In this document: one piece after another, positions 22,204 through 39,724 of the stretch
Layout: each line of letters opens with the position of its first letter
How positions within the stretch are numbered: position 1 is the first letter of the stretch
From: an uncultured Synergistaceae bacterium
GTDB lineage: Bacteria > Synergistota > Synergistia > Synergistales > Aminiphilaceae
DNA: 40,000 nt
Assembly: GCA_964545875.1 (NCBI GenBank)
Contig: CAZJHH010000008.1
Span: 74,840-114,839 of the forward strand
Direction: 5' to 3'
Made by a program: the position numbers and the translations under genes
Notes under the pieces: generated by a model
Databases searched by the model: none
What the model was told of the DNA's origin: nothing
Seen by the model: the letters and a program-made list of their open reading frames with translations, nothing else

Positions 22204-22269
22204 GCGGAGAAGAAAAAAGGGGATTGGGAACTTTTTTCTAACATTGCTGGGTAATTCTGAAGATTTGCG

Positions 22270-22320
22270 GAAGGAGACGGCTTTGAAATCTTGCCGTCTC
22301 CTTCTTCCTCCTTTTTGTTT
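22270..22320 (+). terminator. Stem-loop with T-tract between the binding-protein and permease genes (partial terminator or attenuator)
   Basis: GAAGGAGACGGC-11 nt-GCCGTCTCCTTC forms a 12-bp perfect stem followed by a T-rich run. This arrangement is commonly used to uncouple SBP and permease expression. Confidence 0.55.
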
Positions 22321-22374
22321 CGGTAACTTGTCTGACTGTTGGTTTTACAGGGATTGGAGGGGACACGGCCTGCC

Positions 22375-23292: not shown

Positions 23293-23302
23293 GAGACCTC
23301 TT

Positions 23303-24640: not shown

Positions 24641-24656
24641 AAGGAGGAAGTTTGTT

Positions 24657-25697
24657 ATGGGCGACACTCTCTTGCAGATACATCATCTCCATACCTCCTT
24701 TTTCACGCAATTGGGAGAAGTAAAGGCTATTCGCGACGTAAGCTTCCGGCTGGACAAGGGGGAAATTCTGGGAATTGTCGGTGAATCCGGAAGCGGTAAG
24801 AGCGTTACCTCCTTATCTATAATGAAATTGCTTCCCTATCCGGGGAAAATCGTAAGCGGTGAAATCCTGCTTGACGGAGAAAACCTCGTTTCTAAATCGA
24901 GTCGCCAGATGAGAAGGATTCACGGGGATAAAATTGCCATGATTTTTCAAGATCCCATGACATCGCTGAACCCTCTTTTTAGCATAGGGAACCAAATCGT
25001 TGAAGCCATTACGGAGCACCAACGGATTTCCCGCCGCAAGGCCGTGGAAAAGGCCGTCGATATGCTCCGGATTGTGGGTATTCCTTCGCCGGAAAAACGT
25101 ATTCGCAGCTTCCCTTACGAATTTTCCGGCGGTATGCGGCAGAGAGCTATGATTGCCATGGCCCTCTCTTGCGAGCCTGAACTCTTGATTGCGGACGAAC
25201 CTACCACGGCGCTGGACGTCACCATTCAGGCTCAGGTGCTGCGGCTTATCAAGGAGTTGAACGATTCCCTCGGCACTGCCACAATTCTTATCACCCATAA
25301 TTTGGGCTGTGCCGCCAGTACTTGCGATCGCATTCTCGTCATGTACGGAGGGCAAATTATGGAAGAGGCGCCGGTGGATGAAATTTTTTACGATCCCCGC
25401 CATCCCTATACCATGGGGTTGCTGCATTCGATTCCCAAGGCCACGGCAAGAGAGGCCCAAGAGCGTTTGGTCCCTATTTTGGGAACTCCTCCGGATATGC
25501 TGCACCCTCCTACGGGATGCCCTTTTTATCCGCGCTGTGTTTTTGCCATGAAAATCTGCGCTTCCCGAGAAGTTCCTGAGTTTGTCATCAGTGACGGACA
25601 TCGGGCAAAGTGCTGGCTTTGTCATCCCGAAGCGCCTCGAATAGAGAAATATGAAGCCCAGAAGGGAGGAGTGCGGCATGAAGCTGCAAAAGAGTAA
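24657..25697 (+). CDS. Peptide ABC transporter ATP-binding protein (OppD/DppD type)
   Basis: ATG at 24657 follows an AAGGAGG SD. Walker A is GESGSGKS, the signature is FSGGMRQR and Walker B is [12 protein letters not shown]. The C-terminal oligopeptide-ATPase extension HPYT...GCPFYPRC is present. Confidence 0.9.
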
Positions 25698-26664
25698 CTG
25701 CTCTCTTCTTGAAGTCAGAAATTTGAAAATGTATTTTAAGCGGCATACCGGAATTCTTTCTCGCCGTGTGGAATACGTAAAGGCCGTGGACGATGTTTCT
25801 TTCTCTATCGAACGGGGAGAAACCTTTGGCTTGGTTGGGGAATCCGGATGCGGAAAATCCACTACGGGATGTTCCATAGTGCGGCTTTATAAACCTACAT
25901 CGGGGCACATCTTTTATGACGGCCTGGATTTGGCGGAGCTTTCGACAAAGGAAATGTGGCCTTATCGTAGAAAACTTCAGATGATTTTTCAGGATCCCTA
26001 TGCCTCGTTAAACCCTCGCATGACGGTCTCGGACATTATCGGTGAACCTCTCGATATTTTTAATATTTCCAAAGGTCGGGAGCGCCGGGATAGAATTAGT
26101 AAACTGCTTGAAGTGGTGGGTTTGAGTAAAAGCCATGCGAGCCGTTATCCTCACGAGTTCTCGGGAGGGCAGCGTCAAAGGATCGGTATTGCCCGGGCCT
26201 TGGCTGTCAACCCTGAATTTATCGTTTGCGATGAGCCCATTTCAGCGCTTGACGTGTCCATCCAGGCCCAGGTTATAAATATGCTGGAGGAGCTGCAGGA
26301 ACAGTTGGGGCTTACGTATTTATTTATCGCCCATGATCTTTCGGTGGTTCGCCATATTTCCAGGCGCGTGGGGGTAATGTATTTGGGCTCTTTAGTGGAA
26401 ATGGCTTCTACGGAAGATCTTTTTCGCAACACCTTGCATCCCTACACTCAAGCCCTCCTTTCCGCTGTTCCCGTGCCTGACCCGGAACTCAGTCGAAGGA
26501 TGAATGCCCAGGTGTTAGAGGGGGACGTCCCAAGTCCGATCGATACGCCCAGAGGGTGTAAATTTGCCTCTCGCTGCATGAGGGCGCGAAAAAATTGCTT
26601 TGACTCGGCGCCATCCCTCAGAAACGTTGGTTCTGAGCATTATGTGGCGTGTCATTATGTTTGA
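25678..26664 (+). CDS. Peptide ABC transporter ATP-binding protein (OppF/DppF type)
   Basis: ATG at 25678 follows a GGGAGGA SD and overlaps the oppD-like stop by 20 nt. Motifs are GESGCGKST, FSGGQRQR, FIVCDEPISALD and a C-terminal GCKFASRC. Confidence 0.9.
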   Translation: MKLQKSNCSLLEVRNLKMYFKRHTGILSRRVEYVKAVDDVSFSIERGETFGLVGESGCGKSTTGCSIVRLYKPTSGHIFYDGLDLAELSTKEMWPYRRKLQMIFQDPYASLNPRMTVSDIIGEPLDIFNISKGRERRDRISKLLEVVGLSKSHASRYPHEFSGGQRQRIGIARALAVNPEFIVCDEPISALDVSIQAQVINMLEELQEQLGLTYLFIAHDLSVVRHISRRVGVMYLGSLVEMASTEDLFRNTLHPYTQALLSAVPVPDPELSRRMNAQVLEGDVPSPIDTPRGCKFASRCMRARKNCFDSAPSLRNVGSEHYVACHYV

Positions 26665-26724
26665 AAATTTGATCATTCGTTTCTTTGAGTGATAGCGCTT
26701 TGTTATGGAGAAAGGGTGACTCGT

Positions 26725-28104
26725 ATGGCTTTAACTCTTGCGGATTTGGTGTGGCTTACGGTAAATTTGCCCGAAGATGTGGAAAAACTTAAGTGGTTTG
26801 GAGATTTCGACCGCGCTCAGAATGTCATCGATCTTTACTTGAACAGAGATATTCCGGAAGCCCTGAGAAAACGGCTTTCTATAGAAAAAGAGCTGCTTCG
26901 GAGAATGCCTTTGGGCTATCGCTATTCCCATGATGAAGCTCTCCGAATTTTGCGTGATGCCCTTGTGGATTTCAAGGATGAAGAGTTGGAAAGTTTGAGA
27001 GACAACAATGCGGTGGAGTGGATCTATATCCGGGGAGAGGTTCACTATAAGGATAATTTTTTGGAAAATTTGCTTAAAACCAGGAAAGATTATGCGGACC
27101 GGGAGAAGAATCCTTCGCAAAAATCTCAAAGCCGAACCAATGCGGAGTTATTGGATGCCGTTATTGAAAAATTAAAAACAAAGGGCGCCATAACGTACCG
27201 TCATCATATTCGCACGACCCTTACCGTTTCCTCCGAAGCGGAAAGGATAGGTGAACCAGTTCGGATTTATATTCCCATTCCTGCCTCATGTGAGAATGTA
27301 AAAAATTTTACATTGCTGGAGACCGTGCCGCGGCCTCATTTGATTTCTCCGCCGGAGTACCCTCTTCGTACGGTTTGTTTTGAGACCACACTGGAAAAGG
27401 GGCAAAAATTTTCTGTGGAGTACGAGTTTGAAAACCACATGTTCTATCAAAAGCTGGAACCCGCAAAAGTGCTGAAAGCACAGCCCACGTTTTACACGGA
27501 AGAACAGCTTCCTCATATTTGGATGACTCCCTATTTGAAATCTCTTGCCGCGGAGATTACCGCGGGATGTGAAAATAACCCTTTGCAGAAAGCGAGAAGA
27601 ATTTACGACTACATCACTACTCACGTGAAATACTCTTATGTGCGCCCCTATTTCACCATTACAAACATTCCCGATTATGTCGCCACGGGATTCAAAGGAG
27701 ATTGCGGAATCCAGGCGCTTTTGTTCATCACCTTATGCCGTATCTGCGGTATTCCCGCTAGATGGCAGAGCGGACTGTACAGCACTTCTTTGGATGTGGG
27801 GAGCCACGATTGGGCTCAATTTTATGTCGCTCCCTACGGCTGGCTTTTTGCGGACTGTTCTTTCGGCGGTGGGGCGTATCGCCGCGGTGCCATGAATCGT
27901 TGGGACTTCTATTTTGGAAACCTCGATCCCTTCAGGGTTCCCACCTGCTCGGAATTTCAGCACGAGCTCATGCCTCTCTGTCGATTCATGCGCAATGATC
28001 CTTACGACAACCAAGTAGGTGAGGTGGAATTCGAAACTCATGGATTGAATGGCAAGGAATTTGATACTGAACATGCCTTGGTTTCTATTGAGGAGCTGAG
28101 GTAG
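26725..28104 (+). CDS. Transglutaminase-like cysteine-protease-fold protein
   Basis: The Cys-His-Asp core is visible: GDCGIQALLFITLCRICGIPAR, SHDWAQFYV, WLFADCS. The N-terminal 300 aa or so has no recognisable family. Confidence 0.75.
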   Translation: MALTLADLVWLTVNLPEDVEKLKWFGDFDRAQNVIDLYLNRDIPEALRKRLSIEKELLRRMPLGYRYSHDEALRILRDALVDFKDEELESLRDNNAVEWIYIRGEVHYKDNFLENLLKTRKDYADREKNPSQKSQSRTNAELLDAVIEKLKTKGAITYRHHIRTTLTVSSEAERIGEPVRIYIPIPASCENVKNFTLLETVPRPHLISPPEYPLRTVCFETTLEKGQKFSVEYEFENHMFYQKLEPAKVLKAQPTFYTEEQLPHIWMTPYLKSLAAEITAGCENNPLQKARRIYDYITTHVKYSYVRPYFTITNIPDYVATGFKGDCGIQALLFITLCRICGIPARWQSGLYSTSLDVGSHDWAQFYVAPYGWLFADCSFGGGAYRRGAMNRWDFYFGNLDPFRVPTCSEFQHELMPLCRFMRNDPYDNQVGEVEFETHGLNGKEFDTEHALVSIEELR

Positions 28105-28227
28105 CTTCAGGTTTTTCCCAAGAATTTACTGCTATTTTGGCTATACGGCGTGAGGGATGGGATTGTCGCTTCGTATTTTGGGAGAATCCCAAAGAATAGA
28201 AACATGTTCGTTCGGGAGGCGAAGAAA

Positions 28228-29070
28228 ATGAAAATTTTTATTTCTGTGGATATGGAGGGGCTAGCTGGAATTGTTTCCTGGATTCAGGAACAGGAAGACC
28301 GGGAAATGCTTCGAAACGCTATGCATCAGCAGTTGGAATGGATTATAGAAGGTGTCTGCGCCAGCCGACGTAACGGTGAGGTGCAGGAAATCACCGTGGC
28401 AGATTCCCATGGTTTCGGATCAAATTTAATGTATGATCGGATCAGCGACATGGATGAACGCATAAGTTTGATAAACGGCTCTCCGCGACGTCAGTTTATG
28501 ATGGCCGGATTGGATAACTCCTACGACGTTGTTTTTCTCGTGGGATATCATGCCGGAGCCGGACATTTGCTTGGATGTATGGATCATACGTATTCTAGCC
28601 GCACGGTGAGCATTTTACGAGTTAATGGCACGATCATGAACGAGGCCACGGCCAACGCTTCCTATGCGGGGGAGTTGGGAGTTCCCATTGGTCTTGTGGT
28701 GGGCGATAGTGGATTGTACGAAGAATTGCTGACGGAAAAACGGATGCCTTGGGTGGAATTTGTAAAAACCAAAGACTCGTATTCCCGGAAAGCGGCGCGG
28801 TTTGTCCGCCGGAGCGAGCTTAGACGAGAGACGGTAGCCAAAACGGTTAAAGTTTTGGAAAGTGATTTGAAAGGCCTTCCATTACATAGAATAGAGTGCC
28901 CTTGCGTGCTCTCCGTTACCTTCACTACCTCGGCTATGGCCGATACGGTGGCTCAAATTCCGGGATCGGTTCGGGAGGACGGGAGGGCTGTATCCATTCA
29001 ATGTGCTAGTGCCGCCGAAATGCTTGCGGGAATTTCTGCGTTTACCAGCCTGGCAGGAACGGCCGTTTGA
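28228..29070 (+). CDS. dppA: M55 family D-aminopeptidase (DppA type)
   Basis: ATG at 28228 follows a GGGAGG SD. MKIFISVDMEGLAGIVSW is the canonical DppA (Bacillus D-aminopeptidase) N-terminus, and GYHAGAG is present. Confidence 0.85.
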   Translation: MKIFISVDMEGLAGIVSWIQEQEDREMLRNAMHQQLEWIIEGVCASRRNGEVQEITVADSHGFGSNLMYDRISDMDERISLINGSPRRQFMMAGLDNSYDVVFLVGYHAGAGHLLGCMDHTYSSRTVSILRVNGTIMNEATANASYAGELGVPIGLVVGDSGLYEELLTEKRMPWVEFVKTKDSYSRKAARFVRRSELRRETVAKTVKVLESDLKGLPLHRIECPCVLSVTFTTSAMADTVAQIPGSVREDGRAVSIQCASAAEMLAGISAFTSLAGTAV

Positions 29071-29220
29071 TGAAAAGCTGTATCATTTTTTATGGCAATT
29101 ATGTCTTATCCTGCTCAATCAAACGCAACGCCCTTGGTTGTGCTGATGAAGCCTTTCCCGAATTCTGAGAAAAAACTCCCGTTTTTTGCGCTTCCCGGCA
29201 TTCATAGGACACCCAGACAC

Positions 29221-29252
29221 AAAAAAAGCCCCGGAGGGAAAACCTCCGGGGC
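29221..29252 (-). terminator. Rho-independent terminator downstream of the tRNA-like sequence (minus strand)
   Basis: GCCCCGGAGG-GAAAA-CCTCCGGGGC forms a 10-bp perfect stem. On the minus strand it is followed by TTTTTTT, the complement of the A7 at 29221-29227. Confidence 0.8.
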
Positions 29253-29264
29253 CAGTGTTTGTAG

Positions 29265-29341
29265 TGGTGGGCGACACAGGGCTCGAACCTGTGACCTCTT
29301 CCGTGTGAAGGCCGTCAACCCGTATATTTCCACCTGGCTAC
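29265..29341 (-). tRNA. tRNA-Val(CAC)-like sequence with an intact 3' half and a degenerate 5' half; probable att-site remnant
   Basis: The minus strand reads ...TTCACAC-GGAAG-AGGTC-ACAGG-TTCGAGC-CCTGT-GTCGCCC-A-CCA. This gives an anticodon loop with U33 and CAC, a variable loop, a perfect T-arm, the acceptor 3' strand and CCA. The required 5' acceptor GGGCGAC is absent (GGGATGT is found instead). The 5' anticodon stem pairs at only 3 of 5 positions, and the 5' part is about 6 nt too long. Confidence 0.5.
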
Positions 29342-29482
29342 ATCCCAAGCTATACAATAAAAATGCTGTTTTTGCAACGCTTTTCGAGGTTTTTATTTTT
29401 CTTTGATTTGTATTGAATCGTATCGTGTTATACTTTTGCCTGACTCCAAATTGACTCCAAAAACTTTTTGGGAGGCGGCAAA

Positions 29483-30715
29483 GTGCAGATCAAACTTACG
29501 CAAACGCTGGTGCGGCAAACCGTAGCCGAGCCGGGAAAACGAGTGGAGCTGTGGGACACGGTTATACCCGGGCTGCATGTACGAGTGGGGAACCGCACCA
29601 AAAACTATTACCTGCGGTACTCAACCCCAAACGGCCCTCGCCGCAATGCGAAAATAGGTTCTGCGGAAGGGCTTACCCTTGCCCAGGTACGAGACATCGC
29701 TCGGAGTATTATCGGCGATGTGGCCAAGGGGGAAGATCCTGCGGCAAAGGCCCCGACAAAGGACATGCTATTACACAGATACCTCGAAGAGTATTATATC
29801 CCCTGGGTGGTAAAAAACAAAAAAGCCGGGCAGAATACGGCTATCATACTGCGTAATTTTATCGAGTTTTTCGAGCGCAACAAAATGATTTCCGATCTTT
29901 GCCGGCAGGATATAGAAGCGTGGCGGGAGGAAATGCGGACCCGTGGAAATAAGGCCGCCAGTATAAACCGCAAGTATGGCGCTCTGAGGGCGGCTCTTAA
30001 TTGGGGGGTGGAGATGGAGATCCTCCCCTATAACCCTCTGGTAAGCATGCGAGGAATAAAAACTCTGAAAGAAACGGACTCGGAAGAAAAAATCCGCTAC
30101 TTATCGGAAGAGGAAGAAGAGCGTCTTTACAGAGCCCTGAAAGAGCGGGACCTGGAAATTCGTCGGAAAAGACGGAAGCATAACGAATGGTGTTTTTCTC
30201 GGGGGAAAGATCCATGGCCAAACCTGGAGAATGGGGCTTATGCCGACAGCCTGGAACCCATGATTACTGTAAGTCTGAAAACCGGAGTCCGTCGTGGCAC
30301 ACTCTTTCATTTGGAATGGAAAGATGTGGATTTTGGTCATCAGGTGCTTACCGTGAGAGCTGAAATCTGTAAAACCGGAAAATCCCGAAAAATCCCGTTA
30401 AGCCCTACAGCCCTCAAAACTTTGGAAAAGTGGAAAGAGCAGCAAGGCGGAAAAGGGCTTGTTTTCCCCTCACCGAAAACGGGAGGCGTGATGGATAACT
30501 GCAATTCCGCCTGGACAGCCTTGCTAAGGGCTGCGGATATAGAGGGGTTCCGGTGGCACGACCTCAGGCATACTTTTGCAAGTAGGCTGGTGATAAACGG
30601 TGCAGATTTAAATGTGGTCAGGGAATTGCTTGGGCATAGCGACCTCAAAATGACATTGCGCTATGCCCATCTGGCTCCCAATATGAAAAGCAGGACGATA
30701 GAGTTGTTGGGGTAG
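29483..30715 (+). CDS. int: Tyrosine recombinase / phage integrase (P4-like, N-terminal arm-binding DUF4102-type domain)
   Basis: GTG at 29483 lies 7 nt after GGAGG. The N-terminal GKRVELWDTVIPGLHVRVGNRTKNYYLRY is arm-type. The C-terminal catalytic motifs are WHDLRHTFAS and LGHSDLKMTLRYAH (R-H-R-Y). Confidence 0.9.
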   Translation: MQIKLTQTLVRQTVAEPGKRVELWDTVIPGLHVRVGNRTKNYYLRYSTPNGPRRNAKIGSAEGLTLAQVRDIARSIIGDVAKGEDPAAKAPTKDMLLHRYLEEYYIPWVVKNKKAGQNTAIILRNFIEFFERNKMISDLCRQDIEAWREEMRTRGNKAASINRKYGALRAALNWGVEMEILPYNPLVSMRGIKTLKETDSEEKIRYLSEEEEERLYRALKERDLEIRRKRRKHNEWCFSRGKDPWPNLENGAYADSLEPMITVSLKTGVRRGTLFHLEWKDVDFGHQVLTVRAEICKTGKSRKIPLSPTALKTLEKWKEQQGGKGLVFPSPKTGGVMDNCNSAWTALLRAADIEGFRWHDLRHTFASRLVINGADLNVVRELLGHSDLKMTLRYAHLAPNMKSRTIELLG

Positions 30716-30886
30716 TAGGGGGATGGTTTAGAAAAAAAGATATCTCTAGACAATTAGTAAGACATATATGCTTGCACCAATATATTTTTCATCTCTCTTT
30801 TTTAGAGTCCATATGGGGTTTACCGGAAAAGGAGCTTCCACATCGGCAGGCAAGGCATTCAAGGTTATCATAAAACAACAATAGCC

Positions 30887-30931
30887 AAAGAGGGTCTTTT
30901 TCCTGCGCTAGAAAGCCCCTCTTTTTGTTTT
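30887..30931 (+). terminator. Long imperfect hairpin with T-tract downstream of int
   Basis: AAAGAGGG...CCCTCTTT forms the outer stem and CTTT/AAAG an inner stem, followed by TTTGTTTTT. Confidence 0.45.
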
Positions 30932-31167
30932 TCCCTCGATATGAGTAAATTTGATGTCTCTGAGGGCAAAATCAAGGACTATGGAATCCTTTAGTTTTTT
31001 ATAACTCACATTATGCTACGCCAAATTGCGTGAGCTTGGGGACTTTTCAAACACGCTCTTAGTTTTACTGCAGAGTATTTATTTGGCTTAAATCCTTTGG
31101 CCTTCGGCGAAATGGGGAGGATAACATAGATTTTCGCACATATTCAGGAGCGTTGAATATGGAAATC

Positions 31168-31635
31168 CTAATTTTCTTCGCCGCCTTTCCTTACAGACAA
31201 ATTAAATAATATGAAAAAGTCTATCAAAATTAAGGCAAGGCTATTCATGACAAGGGCAAGTAAGATTTTAAGAATAAGGCAGGAAAATGCGGAATTAGAT
31301 AATAGCAAGATAGAAAGAATAAAGGAGAGGGCTAAATAAATGGCGGTAAGGATTAACATGAATTTGTATAAAGAAAGATAGCCAAGCTTTTCGTATCGTT
31401 TCCTGTTGTAATTGGGAGATAGAGAAAATAGTATGGACGCTATGGTAAGCAAAAAACCTAAAAATGTGGAAGAATAGCTTGAAATTATATGCGCAATGCT
31501 TTCTTTAGCGCTGAAAAGGCTGAAAGCGTATTTGGTATTTGCAAAAATTATTTGATAAACACCCCAAAAAAAGAGGCCAGGAAGTAAAGAAAGTACAAAA
31601 ATTATTTTTTTCGATAAACATTTGTTATTTTCCAT
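31168..31635 (-). CDS. RexB-like small four-helix membrane protein (hypothetical)
   Basis: 155 aa with four hydrophobic segments (about aa 11-32, 47-72, 86-112, 116-146). The start overlaps the upstream gene by 11 nt, and a GAAGG SD is present. Size and topology resemble lambda RexB (144 aa, 4 TM). No sequence motif was recognised. Confidence 0.55.
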   Translation of the reverse strand: MENNKCLSKKIIFVLSLLPGLFFWGVYQIIFANTKYAFSLFSAKESIAHIISSYSSTFLGFLLTIASILFSLSPNYNRKRYEKLGYLSLYKFMLILTAIYLALSFILSILLLSNSAFSCLILKILLALVMNSLALILIDFFILFNLSVRKGGEEN

Positions 31636-32575
31636 TGCGCTTAACCTTCAATTTTTTTTGGAACATTTTATTGAACTGTGTTGGGGGAGTTTTTTCGAAT
31701 GCATCTGTTTCAAACTCACTTAGCTTTTTCTCTAAGATTTTGTTTTTATAAAGTCTTTCGGTGATAACTTTATCTACTGCTGGGATGCTGAGTGTTGGTA
31801 TATTCTTCAGTTTGTCTGACACTTTCCCTTGACCAATTACATAAAGATCTGAAAGGATTGGCTGAAGTTCTTGTTTTGCTTGAGCTACAAATTTTACTGT
31901 TTCAGTGTCAATGTGTGTAGCCACATTTGTCACTGTTTTTTTTATGGATTTATTTCGTAAGGGTTTTATTGTCACTTCAATAGAACTTATATTGTCATCG
32001 GTTGCATTCCCTCCTATAAATTCCATGAGAGCCTTACCAAGGGAACCTCTTGAAGAGGCTTCCATTGTTGTTTTTCCAATGAAATCCATAGAAAGAAGTT
32101 CGTTTTTTCCCACACGGTTTATAAGGGGAGTTAGTATTAATTTGTATTTTCTTGAAGAAGAGAATTTTTTTTCAAAATATTGATTGATTAGATCTCCAAG
32201 TAGGGTAATTCTTGGTGATAACATCCTATTTACAAAAGCGATGCAATGAGGTTTTCCAGTATAGAAAAAAGAGGCGAATCCAAGTTCTTCGTTTTCGCTT
32301 AGTTTTGTAGTGATATCTTGTACTGTGACTGTAGATGCATCAATGGCTTTGATTATTTCATTGTTTTTTGTGACAACTAGTAAAAAAGTGTTTTTTTGAC
32401 GAGGGAAATCATCGCTGAAAATGTAGATATGCTCTCCGTTAATCATAAATTTTCTTCGAAACTCTTTTTTTTCCGATAAAAAACAATCTATGATTTTGTT
32501 TATATTAATTAAATATCGATTTTCGCCATCAGGTGTTTCTTCAGAAAGAGAATACGCAGTATAGCATACTCGCAA
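31625..32575 (-). CDS. RexA-like protein (hypothetical phage-exclusion sensor)
   Basis: 316 aa, soluble. A TTG start lies 7 nt after GGGAGGG. The blocks EELGFASFFY, MDFIGKTT and EVTIKPLRNKSIKK resemble lambda RexA blocks ESLGFPSFLF, HFIGRTT and IVIKPKFKRDIKK. The lambda sequence is recalled from memory and not verified. The gene is on the same strand as the CI-like repressor and downstream of it. Confidence 0.6.
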   Translation of the reverse strand: MRVCYTAYSLSEETPDGENRYLININKIIDCFLSEKKEFRRKFMINGEHIYIFSDDFPRQKNTFLLVVTKNNEIIKAIDASTVTVQDITTKLSENEELGFASFFYTGKPHCIAFVNRMLSPRITLLGDLINQYFEKKFSSSRKYKLILTPLINRVGKNELLSMDFIGKTTMEASSRGSLGKALMEFIGGNATDDNISSIEVTIKPLRNKSIKKTVTNVATHIDTETVKFVAQAKQELQPILSDLYVIGQGKVSDKLKNIPTLSIPAVDKVITERLYKNKILEKKLSEFETDAFEKTPPTQFNKMFQKKLKVKRNGK

Positions 32576-32798
32576 AATTGATCCCTCCCGACGATTTTGT
32601 GTAAAAGGATTAGGTTATTCTTTTTTACAGCATGGGATTGTCATCCTATTCTTTCGTTGTTTTTTCCTACGTGCAATGCTTTGCCAATCAATGGTATTTT
32701 TAGCTTTGATGTTTTTCCTATGACCACCTCCAAAATATAAAATCTTGCATTTCACTCAGTAATGAATACAATGCTTTTCCCTGGTTTTTCCCCTCTCT

Positions 32799-33518
32799 CT
32801 ATTTTGATGTACTAATTATTTCTAAGCTCCCATCCCTACTAATCAATATTTCCTTTCCCGATTCTTTCAGATCTGGGCTGATTTGCAATACCAGAGATGT
32901 AATTTTTTGCCCTAACCGTGTCTTTTCCTGCTCAAGTTCGCCGATGGTCTTGAGATACTCTTGATTGGTGGTATGGCGAGCGATGGTGGTGCAGAAGAAT
33001 GTCGCTACGAGCATGCCGAGAACGAAAGCGATAAGAGGGGAGCGTAATTTTTTCATGAAAGTCAACTTTTTGCGCCAAGAGTTTTCCGCTATATGTACAT
33101 GGGGCTCTAAAGGAAGATTTTTAAGAATTTTTCCCCACTGTTCTTGTAGGAATTTTTTTGTGCATTCTCCTTGGTACCAAGTTGCTAAAATTTCTCCCTG
33201 AACTTTTTGAAAAAATCTTATTCTCTTGAGCTCGGGGTCTATTGCTTTTCTAGCGAGAAATGCAATAAAAAAAATCATAAAACCGGATACTATTACTCCA
33301 GCCCAGGTATTGTAAATACTAAAAGTGGATTGGGATGTATTGAGTACAAACAATATAGTTGGGAAACATCCTGCCATTATTATCGAAAGGCCAGTCCATT
33401 TTATGCTATTGGTGCTTTCGTATTTTTGCTCTATTTTTTGATTTATAAATAACAATATTTTTTGAACTTCTTCTTCGGTAGAAAGAAGAGGTGGTTTGCT
33501 TTTGTCTGATTGGATCAT
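32799..33518 (-). CDS. Hypothetical 3-TM membrane protein with C-terminal coiled coil
   Basis: 239 aa with hydrophobic segments at about aa 41-60, 72-89 and 161-180. The heptad-like segment EYLKTIGELEQEKTRLGQKITSL is present. The gene is AT-rich. A TATAAT on the minus strand at 33553-33558 suggests its own promoter. No family was recognised. Confidence 0.65.
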   Translation of the reverse strand: MIQSDKSKPPLLSTEEEVQKILLFINQKIEQKYESTNSIKWTGLSIIMAGCFPTILFVLNTSQSTFSIYNTWAGVIVSGFMIFFIAFLARKAIDPELKRIRFFQKVQGEILATWYQGECTKKFLQEQWGKILKNLPLEPHVHIAENSWRKKLTFMKKLRSPLIAFVLGMLVATFFCTTIARHTTNQEYLKTIGELEQEKTRLGQKITSLVLQISPDLKESGKEILISRDGSLEIISTSK

Positions 33519-33722
33519 TTGTAGTTACGCCTTCCCATTATTTTTCTTTCGCATTATATCTCTTGCCATGTTTTTTAAATTTAAAAATGAGCTTTTTTTA
33601 TCTTCTACGGCTTTTAAAATATTTCACCAATCGGCTGTAGTCCAGGTTTCAACGCTTTTCCCATAACTATCCCGTTTCAACCCACACTCTCATGAAAGAA
33701 CCACGTCTGTTCCTGCTGCCTC

Positions 33723-34451
33723 TTACCACAAGCGTCCTGCTGGTTTCGGCTTCGGGACGATATACAAAACTAACCCCACGATATAGAAGTCGTCTCCTTC
33801 CCTCACCTCCCTTGCCATATAACCCTCGTTTACCGGGCGTAACATCAAGTCTCCGTTCCGCCTATCGATGGCACGCACGAAAAGGCGGTCGTCATGTAAT
33901 ACCACCGCAAACTGCCCATCGGAAACATCGACTCCATGGACGAATAACACGTGATCTCCATCGTTGATTCTGGGAGACATGCTGTCTCCTTCAACCTGGA
34001 TGATCTTGAAGTCTCGCGATTGCCAGGAATAGCCGTCCAGGTCTTTTTTTGCGATCGGCATGGGGATCGTGCTATCCACCTCCCATTCGATACTGTCAGG
34101 ATACATGTTCCCGTTTCCGCAACAAGCCTTTGCCCCGGAGACCACCGGGACAAGCATCATTTTTTTATCCACGTCCACGCCGATTTTCGAGAGATCGGGG
34201 TGGGCTTTTTCATTTTTGAAGGGTGCCGGGTCGTCGGTTTCGCCTGTTAAAAAATCCAGGGGGACTCCCAGAAGCTCTTCTATTTGCTTGGCTGTTCCAT
34301 ACGAAACGCCGGCCTTGCCATTTAAGACATTAGACACATGTTTTTGCGTGATTCCAATAGCTTCAGCAATGTCTTTATTTTTGATGTCTTTTTGTCGCAT
34401 TATATTTCTTGCTCTGTCTTTCTTGAAAACAAGCTTTTTCTCATCTTCCAT
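33723..34451 (-). CDS. CI/LexA-like phage repressor (XRE-type HTH plus S24 peptidase-like domain)
   Basis: The N-terminal HTH is IKNKDIAEAIGITQKHVSNVLNGK. The C-terminal part is an S24 fold (VEGDSMSPRINDGDHVLF...LRPVN). Confidence 0.85.
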   Translation of the reverse strand: MEDEKKLVFKKDRARNIMRQKDIKNKDIAEAIGITQKHVSNVLNGKAGVSYGTAKQIEELLGVPLDFLTGETDDPAPFKNEKAHPDLSKIGVDVDKKMMLVPVVSGAKACCGNGNMYPDSIEWEVDSTIPMPIAKKDLDGYSWQSRDFKIIQVEGDSMSPRINDGDHVLFVHGVDVSDGQFAVVLHDDRLFVRAIDRRNGDLMLRPVNEGYMAREVREGDDFYIVGLVLYIVPKPKPAGRLW

Positions 34452-34477
34452 TTGTCCACCCCTCCCTTCTTTTTCTC

Positions 34478-34600
34478 CATAACCTACAAGGTAAAGCCGT
34501 GTTTCCGCAAAGTCAATCCACAGGGAGTTCTCAAAAATAACCTAAAAGGTTTATTTTGAGTCTTTAGGCCCATTGCGTATAATTACCTATCGGGTTATAT
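34478..34600. promoter_or_regulatory. Divergent switch region with three operator-like sites and a rightward promoter
   Basis: The sites are ATAACCTacaAGGTAAA (core 34482-34492), ATAACCTaaaAGGTTTA (34540-34550) and ATTACCTatcGGGTTAT (34585-34595). A TTGAGT-16 nt-TATAAT promoter (-10 at 34578-34583) lies between sites 2 and 3. Confidence 0.45.
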
Positions 34601-34626
34601 TTTTGATGCGGAAAGGAGGTGGCACA

Positions 34627-34863
34627 GTGAAACTGATTGATTTAGATGAAAAAATGAGGGGCTTTGAGGTGAAAAACATTGATATTGCTAAGGATTTAAG
34701 CGTTACAGAAAAAGCAGTATCTCAATGGAGGCGAGGGCGGGTATTCCCCTCTGACAACGCAATAAGTTACCTGTTAGGTAAATTTGGCGCTTTAAAAGTT
34801 GAGACGGATTCCGGGGAAATTTTTGTTATGAGCGAAAACCCTACCACCCCCGCCCCGGAGTAG
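34627..34863 (+). CDS. Cro-like small HTH protein
   Basis: GTG at 34627 lies 7 nt after GGAGG, giving 78 aa. IDIAKDLSVTEKAVSQWRRG is an HTH-like segment. The gene is divergent from the repressor. Confidence 0.6.
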   Translation: MKLIDLDEKMRGFEVKNIDIAKDLSVTEKAVSQWRRGRVFPSDNAISYLLGKFGALKVETDSGEIFVMSENPTTPAPE

Positions 34864-35123
34864 CGGCATTACCCCAGGGCGGGGAGGAGCAAAGCATCCT
34901 GGGGGCTGTCAACACGGTATCCCGATTTGTTGCAAGCCTCCAAGCCTTGGCCGCCACGTGCGACGAAGCAGGCGAAATAGCGGCAATCACCATGGATGTG
35001 GCGGCGGACGGAAAGCTCAGCGGAGAAGGCACGGTTACGCTCCGGTCAAGGTACAACGAAGCACGCGCGGCGTTTCTGGATCTTGGGGAATTGATTGGAA
35101 CGTAGGGAAGGGGATGTAAAAAA

Positions 35124-35285
35124 ATGCACGATAAAAAGGCCCCCATGAGGGAGCAAAAAGTAGGTGTTCCGCTCGTGGAGGAACCGTATTCCTTCCTCTC
35201 CGAATGCAGACGACGGGTTCTTGCTGTAAACATGGCCACCAGGAAAGACGGTACTTTTGAGTTTTCCTTGAAGCCTAAGGCATGA
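35124..35285 (+). CDS. Hypothetical small protein (53 aa)
   Basis: An ATG follows a GGAAGGGG SD. It is below the ORF-track length cutoff. Its 3' end overlaps the convergent gene by 11 nt. No homology was recognised. Confidence 0.25.
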   Translation: MHDKKAPMREQKVGVPLVEEPYSFLSECRRRVLAVNMATRKDGTFEFSLKPKA

Positions 35286-35520
35286 ATTTCCCCAAAAGAA
35301 GTGGAACCAGGGTTTCCTTGATGGCGGGATGTAGCAGGGTAAGCGCAGTAATAACTGCGAAGAGGGCAAATATGCTGAGGTTGGCGCGAGTGAGTTTCTC
35401 CCGAAGTTCTTTTATTTCTGATTGCAACAGCTGGATATTTTCTTTGTGAGACTCGCTCTCTGCTCCTAGCCTCCCAATAAGAAGAGAAGCTTCATCTAGG
35501 GAAATCAGTTCTTTTGACAT
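35275..35520 (-). CDS. Hypothetical coiled-coil protein with C-terminal TM anchor
   Basis: 81 aa. The coiled-coil segment is ENIQLLQSEIKELREKLTRA, followed by the hydrophobic LSIFALFAVITALTLL. The start is 2 nt after the upstream gene stop, suggesting translational coupling. Confidence 0.5.
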   Translation of the reverse strand: MSKELISLDEASLLIGRLGAESESHKENIQLLQSEIKELREKLTRANLSIFALFAVITALTLLHPAIKETLVPLLLGKFMP

Positions 35521-35522
35521 GG

Positions 35523-35861
35523 TCAGTTAACCTCATCAAGACTTTTCACTTTTGCGGAGAGATTCTTGAGAAGAATATCTGATTGACGAAGCTGCTCTTT
35601 TATCTCGTCTTCAGCATCCTTGTCTACTACGGGCTCTTCGAATGCTTGTCTGGTCAGGCCTCTTTTTTGAGCGGCATCGACCTCCATAAAGGAAATCATT
35701 CCACATTCGGGACACGAAATCATAGCAATAGGCTTAAAGGCGGACCCCCATCGCATCATTGCTACATGTTTACCGTCATCTTCTGAAGGAATTATATAGG
35801 TGCCGGCAAGGGTATAGTGCTTGATTTCTTCGTGTGAACAATACGGACAAACGTAAGCCAT
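35523..35861 (-). CDS. Hypothetical zinc-ribbon protein
   Basis: 112 aa. CPYC (aa 5-8) and CPEC (aa 50-53) form a 4-Cys ribbon. The C-terminus is acidic and coiled. A GGAGG SD is present. Confidence 0.6.
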   Translation of the reverse strand: MAYVCPYCSHEEIKHYTLAGTYIIPSEDDGKHVAMMRWGSAFKPIAMISCPECGMISFMEVDAAQKRGLTRQAFEEPVVDKDAEDEIKEQLRQSDILLKNLSAKVKSLDEVN

Positions 35862-36012
35862 AGCAAATAACCTCCAATATTAGTTTATGAATATTTTAGC
35901 ACACAGTTGTTTTTACGGACCTGCGGGGAAAATATTTGGAGGCCTGGGAAGCTCTTCTCGGGATTGGAGATTTAATTAAAAAATAGAGTTCTTTAGGGTT
36001 CCGAAGTCTAAA

Positions 36013-36681
36013 TCAGATAGCACACGCTTCTAAAAAAGCTAATCCTAAGGGAGTTAAGCGGAAAGACTCAGATTCTTCTACGTCTAAACTAATCATGTCC
36101 ATGACTAATGGCTCTGTTTTATTGATGCCTTTAATGATTCTCAGCCTTTTTAAGTTTTCCAGACTAATGATTAAAGATTCTTCGTTTATTTCTGAATTTT
36201 CTGGGGCCATTAAAAAATCGGAGTGTTCGAATTCACGTTTGTTGTTTTGAGAGCAATATTGAAGAAGCCGAGCTTCCAAAGGTTCTAAGGATTTGATTAT
36301 GTCGATAAAAGCCATACGAATTTTGGATTCTTCAAAGTTGGGGTCCAGTGCATTGGCAAGGAGTTTAGCCCAAAGTTTTTGAAGATCGGGGTCTGTTTCC
36401 AGAGAAGCGGGAGGAATAAACACATAGCCCATTTTGGCACTCATCTCTCGGCAGAGGTTGGGGTCATGAATCCCTCTTTTTTGAAGCACTTCGCTTGTTG
36501 CTTTACAAATATCAATAAGAGAATGAGTTTTTTCAACGGCTTCTTCAACAGGACCTTTTGAGAAAAATTTTTTAATTGAAGAAGAGCATTTTTCTAGAAC
36601 TCCTTGTGTTAGGAGTGTGACTGGAACAGCGGTTACGGCTGCAGTGGCGGAGCTGACTATTACGGGAAGTATTTCAGACAT
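36013..36681 (-). CDS. Abi-alpha / DUF4393-like protein (putative abortive-infection family)
   Basis: 222 aa. IPPASLETDPDLQKLWAKLLANALDP followed by FIDIIKSLEPLEARLLQY matches my recollection of the Abi_alpha/DUF4393 core (PP...L..lfanLLa.a.d...hp.F..il.qLsp.EA.lL). Not verified by search. Confidence 0.55.
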   Translation of the reverse strand: MSEILPVIVSSATAAVTAVPVTLLTQGVLEKCSSSIKKFFSKGPVEEAVEKTHSLIDICKATSEVLQKRGIHDPNLCREMSAKMGYVFIPPASLETDPDLQKLWAKLLANALDPNFEESKIRMAFIDIIKSLEPLEARLLQYCSQNNKREFEHSDFLMAPENSEINEESLIISLENLKRLRIIKGINKTEPLVMDMISLDVEESESFRLTPLGLAFLEACAI

Positions 36682-36712
36682 AAAATCAAATCCTTTCTTT
36701 GGGGGTTTTTAG

Positions 36713-37015
36713 ATGAAAAACTTCTTTGTTCGAATGACTGCTACGCTTTTCATTCTTATTGTTTTTGCAGTTTTGATTCCTCTTCACCTACTTATCATAA
36801 CACTCTGTTTTGTTCCTTGCGTAATAAACGAGCTCCTCTTATATACGGCACGGAAAATTTGGTTTTGTTGTTTTGCACCGAGGCTCATTATTGCAGAGAT
36901 CGATGGTTTGCCAATTCCCAAAACGGAAGAAGCACTTTACAAGCATTTTTTTGTAGTTACAGGTATTAAAAAAATGCAAGAAAGCTTGGAGAAAATCATA
37001 TGCCAAAAATCGTAA
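36713..37015 (+). CDS. Hypothetical small membrane protein
   Basis: 100 aa with two hydrophobic segments. The SD is weak, and only 31 nt separate it from the divergent gene. Confidence 0.35.
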   Translation: MKNFFVRMTATLFILIVFAVLIPLHLLIITLCFVPCVINELLLYTARKIWFCCFAPRLIIAEIDGLPIPKTEEALYKHFFVVTGIKKMQESLEKIICQKS

Positions 37016-37127
37016 CTTTATCATTTTTTGGGAATTTGACTGGGGTATAGCCGATTGGGGGCCTTGAAAACAAAGTAGCGACAATGCGCTAACCGTACTC
37101 GAATCAAGCACGGAAAGGAGGAAAACA

Positions 37128-37562
37128 GTGTCGAAAGCAAACGTGGTGCCTTTCGAACGTCCCCAGGAACAGCTGGGTTTGGATGGAATCATCGGCATGC
37201 TGGTGCAGCAAACCATAGCCAGCCTGCTCGCTGAAATCGATATAGAAAAAGCCTTCCGGGAGGCAATGAAAGAGGTTATTGCCGAAAAGATGCAGCAAAA
37301 AAAGCTGGAAATGGATTATTTGATGGACACGGAAGAAGTGGCCCAGATGATCAGAATGAGTAAGGCCTATCTCGATAAGGCCAGAAGCCAGGGAACCCGG
37401 GGGGGATCCCGTCCTGCTCCGAAAAACGTGGAGGTTGGCAGCAGAGCGTTGTACAAGGCTTCAACAGTACAGCGGTGGATCAAAACGCTACCGGAATATG
37501 GCGGAGAGGAAGCTCCGGTATATAAGAACCAAAAGATAAAAAAGGAGTGTGTAATGCAATGA
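37128..37562 (+). CDS. Phage DNA-binding protein with AlpA/excisionase-type (MerR-superfamily) HTH
   Basis: GTG at 37128 follows an AAGGAGG SD. The segment MDTEEVAQMIRMSKAYLDKARSQG...ALYKASTVQRWI resembles HTH_17/AlpA-type excisionase-regulators. Confidence 0.55.
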   Translation: MSKANVVPFERPQEQLGLDGIIGMLVQQTIASLLAEIDIEKAFREAMKEVIAEKMQQKKLEMDYLMDTEEVAQMIRMSKAYLDKARSQGTRGGSRPAPKNVEVGSRALYKASTVQRWIKTLPEYGGEEAPVYKNQKIKKECVMQ

Positions 37563-37702
37563 AGGCAATGTGGTTGATCCTTGCGGTATGTGGCTGTATG
37601 GGGGGCGTCTGGGGAATTCTGCGGATAGCGGCGGATATTCACGCGGATCGTTGTACTCGTAATCACAAGGGTGTTTCCCGGAAGGGGAGGATCACGGCAT
37701 GA
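37559..37702 (+). CDS. Candidate 47-aa membrane peptide
   Basis: The ATG overlaps the upstream stop (ATGA). The peptide is MKAMWLILAVCGCMGGVWGILRIAADIH..., with one hydrophobic helix. It is below the ORF-track cutoff. Confidence 0.3.
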   Translation: MKAMWLILAVCGCMGGVWGILRIAADIHADRCTRNHKGVSRKGRITA

Positions 37703-37788
37703 GCAAATTGCAGTTTTTGACGGTGGTTGCGGTTTTGGTGTTGCACTTGTATGCCATGGTGATTTCTGCGCGCAGTTGGGAGCGGTAA
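37699..37788 (+). CDS. Candidate 29-aa membrane peptide
   Basis: It has an ATGA overlap with the previous candidate and a GGGGAGG SD 8 nt upstream. The peptide is MSKLQFLTVVAVLVLHLYAMVISARSWER. Confidence 0.25.
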   Translation: MSKLQFLTVVAVLVLHLYAMVISARSWER

Positions 37789-37884
37789 CGATGAAGCTTT
37801 TCAGGCGACGGTGCAAACTAGGCGTCCGTCGAAAGATTTGGACCCTAAAAACTGGAAAACTTGATTACGCAAGGAGATGAGACG

Positions 37885-38127
37885 ATGAAAAATTTTCTGC
37901 AAATGATTTTTGGTTTTTTCCGTAAAAAAAGTGAGCCTCAGCCTTCTTCCGCTCTCTTTTCCCATGGCGGCAATACGAACACCATGAGCCGGACAGCGGA
38001 AGACCTCGAGCTATTGATCGGAGCCGCATGTGATGGAGACCGTATGTGGCAGGGGCTGCGCGGAGCCGTCACCATCGGAGGTATCCAACGGCTGCGGAGC
38101 ATGGCGGACAGGCTGGGAGCGGCGTGA
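37885..38127 (+). CDS. Hypothetical phage protein
   Basis: ATG at 37885 follows an AGGAG SD, giving 80 aa. No family was recognised. Confidence 0.45.
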   Translation: MKNFLQMIFGFFRKKSEPQPSSALFSHGGNTNTMSRTAEDLELLIGAACDGDRMWQGLRGAVTIGGIQRLRSMADRLGAA

Positions 38128-38142
38128 AACGGAGCGGAGTAG

Positions 38143-38182
38143 GGACGATAAAACACGGGATCAGGTGCTCGCAACACCTGAT
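38143..38182 (+). repeat. 40-bp direct repeat, copy 1 (contains internal hairpin)
   Basis: GGACGATAAAACACGGGATCAGGTGCTCGCAACACCTGAT is identical to 39359-39398. The internal inverted repeat is ATCAGGTG-ctcgcaa-CACCTGAT. Confidence 0.95.
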
Positions 38183-38210
38183 AAGCAGGAATGTAAAGGA
38201 GGCATGAGAA

Positions 38211-38576
38211 ATGCTGAATATCCCCCAGGTGCCAGCGAAACTCACCACGATCTGTAACGGTGAACTCGAAGATCGCTTTCAGGACGCCCTGCGTACGGTG
38301 ATCTCATCTTTGAAGCCGGGTGAAAAGGGAAGTATCACCATGACCTTGAATTTTTGCAGGCAAGCGGAGAGCGAAAGCATTATCGACACGAAGTTCAAGG
38401 TGACCAAAAAACTGCCCCCCGCAAGTAAGGCCAGCTTTATCCGGGATTTGGGAGCCAAAGGGCTACAAACGGACGCTCCCATGGAACAACAGAATCTGTC
38501 CTTCCTGGACACCGAGCCGAAGACGAAAGCTCTGGATCCTGATCTGGAAAATAAAGAAAGAACGAAGGAGGCATAA
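38211..38576 (+). CDS. Hypothetical phage protein
   Basis: 121 aa with an AGGAGG SD. No family was recognised. Confidence 0.6.
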   Translation: MLNIPQVPAKLTTICNGELEDRFQDALRTVISSLKPGEKGSITMTLNFCRQAESESIIDTKFKVTKKLPPASKASFIRDLGAKGLQTDAPMEQQNLSFLDTEPKTKALDPDLENKERTKEA

Positions 38577-38614
38577 AGATGATGGAGCAGGGAGGCATAG
38601 AGATGATGGAGCAG
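38567..38614 (+). repeat. Tandem 24-nt duplication spanning SD plus start codon
   Basis: GGAGGCATAAAGATGATGGAGCAG is followed by GGAGGCATAGAGATGATGGAGCAG (23/24 identical). This yields the repeat MMEQGGIE-MMEQ at the N-terminus of the 38579 ORF. Confidence 0.95.
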
Positions 38615-39328
38615 CGAGAGCAGATCAATGTGTGTGCGAAACCGGGAGAAATTGTCATCCGGCATGGTCAAGCAAAGCCCCTTTTCGAGTATCGGGGCAC
38701 GGATTACAAAACCAAGACCGTACAGGGATTTGCGAGCCTCGTAAAGGCCAAGGGGAACCGGGATCATGCCATCGTTTTCTTCGGGATAAACTCGGCAACC
38801 GCCATTCTGGACGATCGGATTCAGGACAGGGAGCAGGACATAGTTTCTTATAACGGGCAACGTTCCGTCCAATACGACGAATGGCTTCCCATTCTCAAGG
38901 GAACGGGTTTTTCCCAAAAAGAGCTGATCGAATTTCTGCAGCGACGGGAAGACGGGGAAGTTCCGGAAAAAGAAGCTCTCATTCAGCAACTGAAAAATTT
39001 CCGCTACGTCACCAACATTACCGGAGATTTCACGTATGACTCGGCGAATAACTACACCTTCTCCGTCAAGGTTGGAGAAGCGGATGGAACGGTGAGAATC
39101 CCCCAGACTCTGACGGCAAATATCGAAGTATTTCTGGATTCGGGATTTACCCAGGAGATGGAAGTGGAAATCGAGATCATAAAGCCTAAGTCGGAATCCG
39201 AGCGGCCGCGATTCGATTTGGGTTGCCCGAAGCTGAACCGGTATTTGAAAAAGGCGAATGATCACGAGCTGGAAAGGCTTCACGAGGAACTGGACGGCTG
39301 GCTGGTAGTTGCGGGGCAGCCCCTCTAA
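38579..39328 (+). CDS. Hypothetical phage protein (alternative start 38603)
   Basis: 249 aa. Two equivalent SD-ATGATG initiation sites arise from the tandem duplication. No family was confidently recognised. Confidence 0.65.
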   Translation: MMEQGGIEMMEQREQINVCAKPGEIVIRHGQAKPLFEYRGTDYKTKTVQGFASLVKAKGNRDHAIVFFGINSATAILDDRIQDREQDIVSYNGQRSVQYDEWLPILKGTGFSQKELIEFLQRREDGEVPEKEALIQQLKNFRYVTNITGDFTYDSANNYTFSVKVGEADGTVRIPQTLTANIEVFLDSGFTQEMEVEIEIIKPKSESERPRFDLGCPKLNRYLKKANDHELERLHEELDGWLVVAGQPL

Positions 39329-39358
39329 ATAAAAAGAGCCCCCCAAGAAAGGGGGGGC

Positions 39359-39398
39359 GGACGATAAAACACGGGATCAGGTGCTCGCAACACCTGAT
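39359..39398 (+). repeat. 40-bp direct repeat, copy 2
   Basis: Identical to 38143-38182. Here the stem extends to 11 bp (GGGATCAGGTG...CACCTGATCCC). It is preceded by a GCCCCCC-aagaaa-GGGGGGGC hairpin. Confidence 0.95.
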
Positions 39399-39433
39399 CC
39401 CGATTATATCACACCTTGAAAGGGGAGGCCAAA

Positions 39434-39631
39434 ATGGAAGCGGAATGTAAGCATGAGGTCGATGTAAATCGGGTGAACCGTGCAAGGGATAGGGCATGCA
39501 TTCTTTCCCAGGAAACCAAAGAGATCCACTATGCCGTTCGGGTGGGAGGAGTTTACGGCCCCACCACAAGGGATAGAGGATGGAGTGAATGCTTCGGAGT
39601 GTTTGAAAACGGAGAGGAAAAAACGGCCTGA
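39434..39631 (+). CDS. Hypothetical phage protein
   Basis: ATG at 39434 follows a GGGGAGG SD, giving 65 aa. No family was recognised. Confidence 0.45.
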   Translation: MEAECKHEVDVNRVNRARDRACILSQETKEIHYAVRVGGVYGPTTRDRGWSECFGVFENGEEKTA

Positions 39632-39724
39632 GGGAAGCCCCCCAGGCGAATGGAAAATAACGCGCCGGGCGTTACAGCGCCCGGCCTCCATTGTAACACG
39701 GCAAGTCAAGAAGGAGGTGTTGGT

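Follow-up and report, generated by a model that had tools for sequence, protein, structure and literature searches.

A divergent RexAB-type gene pair in the immunity region of a Synergistaceae prophage

Experimental studies of Rex-like systems are limited to five, namely those of phage lambda, three actinophages and Pseudomonas putida (PMC12894663). The DNA-binding residues of lambda RexA are R219 and K221 (PMC11077077). The RexA homologues of the actinophages are dimeric, non-specific DNA binders, and Rex activity is sensitive to component stoichiometry (PMC11077077, PMC12894663). Here we describe a rexA-like and a rexB-like gene in a stretch of 40,000 nucleotides (nt), hereafter the window, from an uncultured Synergistaceae bacterium (contig CAZJHH010000008.1, positions 74,840 to 114,839, of assembly GCA_964545875.1).

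The window pair resembles the described systems in its general plan. In the P. putida prophage P1, RexABpp (PP_5643/PP_5644) also consists of a distant prophage RexA homologue and a partner with four transmembrane helices, located 3' of a CI-like repressor (PMC12894663), from which it is separated by two genes (PMC12894663). Compared by their published descriptions, it took HHpred or a comparison of folds to detect RexApp, and RexBpp had no detectable homology (PMC12894663), whereas the window pair was found by ordinary profile hidden Markov models. The actinophage systems Sbash gp30/gp31, CarolAnn gp44/gp43, Toast gp42 and Butters gp30/gp31 are likewise two-gene exclusion modules, each of a soluble and a membrane protein, in or near the immunity regions of temperate phages (PMC11077077, PMC12894663). 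Again by description, their RexA homologues are larger (337–372 amino acids, aa) and come from another phylum, and Butters has a reversed effector polarity (PMC11077077, PMC12894663).

An integrated prophage in the Synergistaceae genome carries the window pair in its immunity region. By analogy with the described systems, the pair is likely to be a prophage-borne abortive-infection or exclusion module of the RexAB type. Homologues of RexA and RexB were found adjacent on the minus strand, both were matched by the corresponding PADLOC models, and they lay in the context of a prophage immunity region. A first-pass annotation, made from the window sequence alone, had proposed such a RexA/RexB-like pair beside a CI-like repressor. 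The proposal was borne out by Pfam, PADLOC and PHROG profiles, by similarity to lambda RexA and RexB, by the predicted 8TWQ-type fold and by the four-helix partner.

The RexA-like and RexB-like proteins

The rexA-like gene (31625..32575, minus strand) encodes a predicted cytoplasmic two-domain protein of 316 aa. It starts with TTG, and a GGGAGGG Shine-Dalgarno sequence is found 7 nt 5' of this codon in the minus-strand sequence. A public gene call (P0002) starts at an internal ATG (M44) of the same open reading frame (ORF), which results in a protein of 273 aa. The sequence comparisons indicated that the TTG is the right start, because the Pfam RexA match begins at residue 1 of the 316-aa protein (position 1 of the model), and because M1, Y5 and Y8 are invariant or nearly so across the homologues.

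Profile searches with the 316-aa protein gave strong matches to RexA. The Pfam model PF15969 (RexA) aligned residues 1–237 to positions 1–231 of its 235 positions, with an expect value (E) of 4.6e-42 and 144.6 bits (cut-off 25). The PADLOC RexA profile matched at E 7.8e-48, and PHROG 12654, 'RexA-like exclusion protein', at E 1.6e-25. When the protein was compared with lambda RexA itself, phmmer gave E 2.1e-18 (PDB 8TWQ_A), and BLASTP gave E 3e-22 with 24% identity over 267 aligned aa. The similarity to RexA was far above chance, with E values from 1e-18 to 1e-48. An NCBIfam replicative-helicase match was dismissed as noise (25.5 bits against a cut-off of 596).

Sequence blocks that the first-pass annotation had paired with lambda RexA proved to be genuine and to align with each other (ESLGFPSFLF/EELGFASFFY, HFIGRTT/DFIGKTT and IVIKPKFKRDIKK/VTIKPLRNKSIKK). 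In the BLASTP alignment, lambda K221 corresponded to K234 of the RexA-like protein and was kept. The counterpart of lambda A220 was A233, a nearly invariant residue of the family.

The same annotation had also suggested structure prediction with AlphaFold, followed by a Foldseek comparison with lambda RexA. The AlphaFold2 model, built with 45 family members in the alignment, had a mean predicted local distance difference test score (pLDDT) of 85.7 and a predicted template-modeling score (pTM) of 0.80. The top Foldseek matches in the PDB were the two chains of 8TWQ (E 9e-14 and 2e-13, probability 1.00). These were the only strong matches, the next one being at E 2.4e-4. The model contained the two-domain RexA fold, that is, a globular domain that is split and a domain for dimerization, as in 8TWQ. 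We interpreted the 316-aa protein, by its sequence and predicted fold, to be a full-length homologue of lambda RexA.

The rexB-like gene (31168..31635, minus strand) starts with ATG and encodes a protein of 155 aa, for which four transmembrane helices are predicted. Between its start and the end of the rexA-like gene there is an overlap of 11 nt (ATGGAAAATAA), such that the ATG lies inside the last rexA codons. The sequence GAAGG is present 9 nt 5' of this ATG. The overlap suggested translational coupling of the two genes, and the presence of GAAGG before the rexB ATG is consistent with it. The TTG-initiated ORF with its strong Shine-Dalgarno sequence, the overlap and the 155-aa ORF were all as the first-pass annotation had described them.

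Kyte-Doolittle analysis of the 155-aa protein revealed four hydrophobic segments, at about residues 11–29, 55–73, 94–112 and 120–138, in agreement with the four helices predicted earlier. Those of lambda RexB (8–26, 48–66, 84–102 and 116–134) were in register with them. By hydropathy, the protein therefore has the form expected of a RexB, namely a small inner-membrane protein (about 145–165 aa) with four transmembrane helices.

The PADLOC RexB model (PDLC02340) aligned residues 9–149 of the 155-aa protein to positions 7–140 of its 141 positions (E 3.2e-12, 45 bits). With the same model, lambda RexB gave E 8.6e-61, and four related partners gave 1.6e-9 to 5.2e-20. In a multiple alignment, the RexB-like proteins and lambda RexB had three motifs in common: PG (helix 1), SSYxxT (helix 2) and LLLLS(N/S)S (helix 3). 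In locus L101, the partner of a related RexA had a weak precomputed match to the Pfam RexB model, and bridged lambda RexB and the RexB-like group. These comparisons pointed to the 155-aa protein being a distant homologue of lambda RexB, with a similar size and four-helix membrane topology.

The window pair and lambda RexA/RexB (PDB 8TWQ; PF15969, PF15968) are alike in having a soluble RexA with the same predicted fold and a four-helix RexB of similar size. In both, the order is rexA then rexB on the repressor strand of a temperate phage, 3' of a CI-type S24 repressor, and the GC content of rexAB is below that of the neighboring phage genes. The differences are also clear. The identities are only 24% for RexA and 27% for RexB, and the hosts are Synergistaceae and Enterobacteriaceae, respectively. 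The window RexA is 37 aa longer, mainly by a lysine-rich C-terminal helix, and has Q at the position of R219. The two genes overlap by 11 nt in the window, whereas there is a 15-nt gap in lambda. In the window, unlike in lambda, cI and rexA are separated by an unrelated membrane gene (239 aa). Finally, rexB abuts the integrase/attachment-site end in the window, but OL/PL-N in lambda.

Relatives of the RexA-like protein

With the RexA-like protein as query, 1.84 billion cluster representatives (clusters at 50% identity) were searched exhaustively by HMMER, and 239 cluster proteins were found at E up to 1e-3. The nearest (P0006) was only 41% identical. A word-indexed homologue search retrieved only the protein's own cluster, and single-protein scans of IMG/VR and of the GTDB species-representative genomes found no relatives. 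In a set of 50,697 sequenced phages, the only matches were 19 records, all from lambda-like enterobacterial phages, with 23–31% identity. By these searches, the window RexA forms a singleton lineage, none of whose relatives exceeds 41% identity.

The first-pass annotation had taken the larger size of this RexA as a distinguishing feature. The lengths of the 149 best relatives did not support this. Their median was 311 aa, and 107 of them were 300–319 aa long. This showed that 316 aa is an ordinary length for a RexA, and that lambda RexA, at 279 aa, is a short outlier.

The neighborhoods of the relatives were examined in 11 loci encoding ten distinct RexA proteins. A RexB-like ORF was found directly 3' of rexA in eight of them (L090/L091, L092/L093, L095, L096, L097, L098, L101). 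In six of these eight, which represent five distinct RexA relatives, this ORF overlapped the end of rexA. The RexB-like ORFs were 32–46% identical to the window protein in the five loci that had full-length or N-terminal calls and were compared by BLASTP. The RexB-like gene calls in L096 and L097 were shorter and gave weaker matches, and the partner in L101 was assigned by profile. All four partners of relatives that were scanned with the PADLOC RexB model matched it.

Two of these loci show different surroundings of rexA. In L101 (4665-11213; NCBI GCA_053528715.1), at a prophage end, the genes are in the order of a helix-turn-helix (HTH) regulator, a 174-aa gene, a NERD/UvrD-family helicase (637 aa), DUF6804, RexA, RexB, a 162-aa gene and an integrase. 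Here RexAB lies within a small cluster of defense genes, with the regulator on one side and the integrase on the other. In L099, the RexA homologue P0012 (8001-8930) is found amid transposase genes of the IS66, IS21 and IS110 types, together with a group II intron reverse transcriptase, a KAP NTPase and a HEPN gene. The gene that follows rexA begins 444 nt 3' of it and encodes 202 aa; it is not an overlapping rexB. The RexA in this mobile-element-rich island may be an orphan or may have a different type of partner. Orphan rexA genes are already known (PMC11077077).

The GC contents of rexB and rexA in the window are 0.325 and 0.333, against 0.483 for cI, 0.509 for the integrase gene and 0.51 for the host flank. 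The drop starts near 30600 and ends near 33600. The earlier description of a very AT-rich cassette was accurate in this respect. It did not stand as a novelty, since the GC content of rexAB was below that of the flanks in 10 of 10 related loci. Lambda showed the same trend, with 0.40–0.43 for rexAB against 0.45 for cI and 0.50 for N.

The majority of the RexA family (239 clusters) is similar to the window RexA in being about 311 aa long, usually followed by a rexB-like ORF, often overlapping, low in GC and frequently located between a repressor and an integrase (for example, in L101). It differs in that no member is closer to the window protein than P0006. It is conceivable, though improbable, that the clade to which the window pair belongs, in which RexA is about 311 aa long and rexB overlaps it, has a trigger or effector logic unlike that of lambda.

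The prophage immunity region and the gene between repressor and rexAB

The gene order in this part of the window is integrase (plus strand), rexB, rexA and ORF239 (minus strand), a CI-like repressor (minus strand), a set of repeats and a Cro-like gene (plus strand). At the prophage end, rexAB has the integrase to one side and the CI/Cro switch to the other, in an arrangement that may be written as 'integrase - cargo - repressor | cro'. The same cassette, with an identical RexA, was found in 15 metagenome or genome contigs.

The CI-like repressor (33723..34451, minus strand) is 242 aa long, and has an HTH_3 domain (PF01381, 4.4e-10) and a Peptidase_S24 autocleavage domain (PF00717, 7.3e-16). 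It also matched the transcriptional repressor family PHROG 4 (3.3e-32). The first-pass annotation had likened the order of genes to the cI-rexA-rexB layout of lambda. This was correct in that rexA and rexB are on the same strand as the CI-like repressor and 3' of it. The likeness did not extend to their spacing and borders: cI and rexA are separated by a gene and by two gaps (204 and 223 nt), and rexB borders on the integrase, not on an OL/PL region.

The intervening gene, ORF239 (32799..33518, minus strand), encodes a protein of 239 aa. By its hydropathy, this is a membrane protein; it has three hydrophobic segments and, at the C terminus, a long helical tail. No Pfam, PHROG, PADLOC or NCBIfam family was matched. 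In a word-indexed search of 5.8 billion proteins, which detects only relatives that share exact 5-residue words, it matched only itself. Its AlphaFold2 single-sequence model was of low confidence (pLDDT 57.7, pTM 0.30). A perfect TATAAT is present about 35 nt 5' of the ORF239 start.

The first-pass annotation had regarded ORF239 as an extra membrane partner of the Rex pair. In such a three-gene variant, ORF239 would work with RexA and RexB as a sensor, as an anchor, or in the gating or targeting of RexB. The gene is directly 5' of rexA on the same strand, it encodes a membrane protein, and its GC content (0.376, against about 0.5 in the flanks) is low like that of the cassette. It is also present on every contig that carries this RexA. 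However, all these contigs represent the same prophage, with RexA 100% identical, and therefore they are not independent evidence for a partnership. The gap between ORF239 and rexA is 223 nt, whereas rexA and rexB overlap. Two genes suffice in the systems of lambda, Sbash, CarolAnn and P. putida (PMC12894663).

The relatives also spoke against this alternative. The genes 5' of rexA in them are unrelated to ORF239 and to each other: L090 has a secreted-type protein of 139 aa, L096 and L098 have soluble proteins (274 and 268 aa, respectively), and L101 has the NERD/UvrD helicase with DUF6804. This variety suggested that the position between the repressor and rexAB is a variable cargo slot. Together with the failure of ORF239 to match any family, or any protein other than itself in the exact-word search, these considerations made the three-gene arrangement improbable, and the support for it comprised nothing beyond adjacency and common base composition. 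ORF239 is most likely an independent cargo gene in that slot, and probably not a third Rex subunit. It could be a separate gene for superinfection exclusion, or other membrane cargo.

Three operator-like copies of ATAACCTAnAAGGT were detected by a repeat search of the cI-cro region, at 34479-34492, 34537-34550 and, inverted, 34585-34598. They are approximately palindromic, with the core ACCT-N3-AGGT, and the third copy is just 5' of the Cro-like start. We infer that these are candidate operators, in a layout that recalls the three-operator OR region. The Cro-like small HTH regulator (34627..34863, plus strand) is divergent from cI, has 78 aa from the GTG at 34627, and matched PHROG 638, transcriptional regulator, at 1.5e-4. 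The call for this gene was taken from L002-L005 and mapped to these coordinates; the Shine-Dalgarno sequence AAGGAGGT precedes its GTG.

The integrase gene (29468..30715, plus strand) is convergent with rexB and lies at the prophage end. It encodes a tyrosine integrase (Pfam Phage_integrase 1.7e-30, Arm-DNA-bind_3 1.3e-12). Adjoining it, on the minus strand, a fragment of a tRNA 3' part was read in the sequence (29224..29310). The fragment consists of the T-arm, the acceptor 3' strand and CCA (about 29265-29310), after which come a strong GC hairpin and a U-run (29224-29253). Neither ARAGORN nor Rfam at gathering thresholds found anything in the window, a complete tRNA included. When 29150-29450 was scanned permissively with Rfam, the only matches were below threshold and due to chance, with two hairpins as their source. 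The fragment is a probable displaced host 3' end of a tRNA gene that serves as the attachment site. In that case, the intact tRNA should be found at the far prophage end, outside the window.

The fragment is just past the end of synteny with the genome of another Synergistaceae, and the leftmost 29 kb of the window is host DNA. The transglutaminase-like protein encoded at 26689..28104 is 84% identical to its counterpart in a Synergistaceae metagenome-assembled genome (MAG), L010. The next-best matches were 45–56% identical and mostly from Bacillota, with one Synergistaceae MAG at 53%. Nucleotide synteny with L010 was 87% over 16725-28098 and 81% over 28212-29063, and stopped at 29063, which is the end of an M55-peptidase gene. 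The host flank (1-29000) contains genes for an Opp-type oligopeptide ATP-binding cassette (ABC) transporter, a transglutaminase-core protein, M55 and M42 peptidases, as well as a DctA-like transporter; such a gene content fits an amino-acid- or peptide-fermenting Synergistaceae host.

On the other side, phage-type DNA-binding genes are found farther right of the CI/Cro switch. For 29400-40000, the part of the window that belongs to the prophage, Megablast gave no match among the 50,697 phage genomes. A second low-GC patch (0.35–0.42) lies across the CI/Cro switch from rexAB. It contains a gene of 222 aa (36013-36681, minus strand) with an Abi_alpha domain (precomputed Pfam match) and a match to the PADLOC candidate PDC-S47 (3.1e-10). 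From these matches, the gene may be a second defense cargo gene of the same prophage.

Proposed function of the pair and its place in the Rex family

By analogy with lambda, with the actinophages Sbash and CarolAnn and with RexAB of P. putida (PMC11077077, PMC12894663), the following course of events may be proposed. RexA and RexB would be expressed in the lysogen in a fixed proportion, to which translational coupling would contribute. RexA would be a cytoplasmic dimeric sensor that binds DNA non-specifically. A DNA or protein-DNA signal of a superinfecting phage would activate RexA, which would in turn trigger RexB, the membrane effector. The membrane would then depolarize or leak, ATP would fall, and growth would stop. 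The infection would thereby be aborted, and the neighboring lysogens would be protected. As in lambda, RexA might in addition bias the CI/Cro switch of its own prophage.

Several observations weigh against a simple lambda-type module. With respect to RexA, the global template-modeling score (TM-score) between the model and 8TWQ was 0.41–0.50, with a root-mean-square deviation of about 14 Å. As far as the model can tell, the low score probably reflects a different angle between the domains from that in 8TWQ. Also, R219, one of the DNA-binding residues of lambda RexA, aligned to Q232.

With respect to RexB, the resemblance to lambda was weak. A single BLASTP comparison of the 155-aa protein with lambda RexB gave 27% identity over 113 aa at E 2e-4, and hhalign of a four-sequence profile of RexB-like proteins against lambda RexB gave E 2e-4 with a probability of only 46%. 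The Pfam comparison that the first-pass annotation had suggested was positive for RexA, but the 155-aa protein had no match to PF15968 (RexB), even with E allowed up to 10. Of the five RexB-like proteins that were scanned, PF15968 recognized lambda RexB alone (8.5e-92), which indicated that this model is narrow. Among the related loci, a RexB-like partner was not demonstrated in L099, L100 and L102.

Co-transcription of rexAB with cI would have to span the intervening gene and the two gaps of more than 200 nt that separate them. A promoter and terminator scan of 30700-34900 gave results at the chance level (12 promoters against 10.6 expected, and 4 terminators against 4.7), and so lent no support to a PLIT-like internal promoter or to co-transcription with cI. 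A hairpin about 240 nt 3' of rexB (~30888-30925) was no better than shuffled sequence (z = -1.1). Finally, the roles of the two proteins are reversed in phage Butters (PMC12894663), and a signaling direction as in lambda is therefore not guaranteed for the window pair.

A Butters-type polarity would make the soluble RexA-like protein the toxic antiviral effector, and the RexB-like protein would sequester it until infection sets it free. The gp30/gp31 pair of mycobacteriophage Butters operates in this way (PMC12894663), and sequence fixes no direction of signaling. On the other hand, the membrane protein is the effector in four of the five characterized Rex-like systems (PMC12894663). The window RexA was recognized over its whole length by lambda-derived profiles, and the window RexB retains the motifs of lambda RexB. 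We consider the Butters-type polarity unlikely for this pair. It is still less probable that its chief role is to regulate the prophage's own lysis-lysogeny switch rather than exclusion: such regulation has been shown for lambda RexA (PMC11077077), and rexA is in the immunity region beside a CI/Cro pair with three operator-like repeats, but a switch role is compatible with exclusion (both are known for lambda RexA), selection on a two-protein function is suggested by the membrane partner, which is conserved and overlapping in most relatives, and the cassette looks horizontally mobile, being low in GC in 10 of 10 loci and, in L099, amid transposase genes without a called repressor nearby.

With the RexAB-type exclusion module as the preferred reading, the window pair appears by sequence to be a new, divergent member of a known system and not a new variant, because existing finders of defense systems, such as PADLOC, would label the pair RexAB automatically. 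The first-pass annotation had argued for a new Rex variant from the size of RexA, the AT-richness and the extra partner, and all three arguments failed. The locus adds no new mechanism. It extends recognizable RexAB pairs to a Synergistaceae prophage, an uncommon host lineage. The family-wide search also indicates that, in length and in gene spacing, lambda RexA is not typical of the family to which it belongs, because the typical member is about 311 aa long, lies in a low-GC cassette and, in most loci examined, has a rexB-like ORF directly 3', often overlapping. This is a modest but useful point for the choice of model Rex systems.

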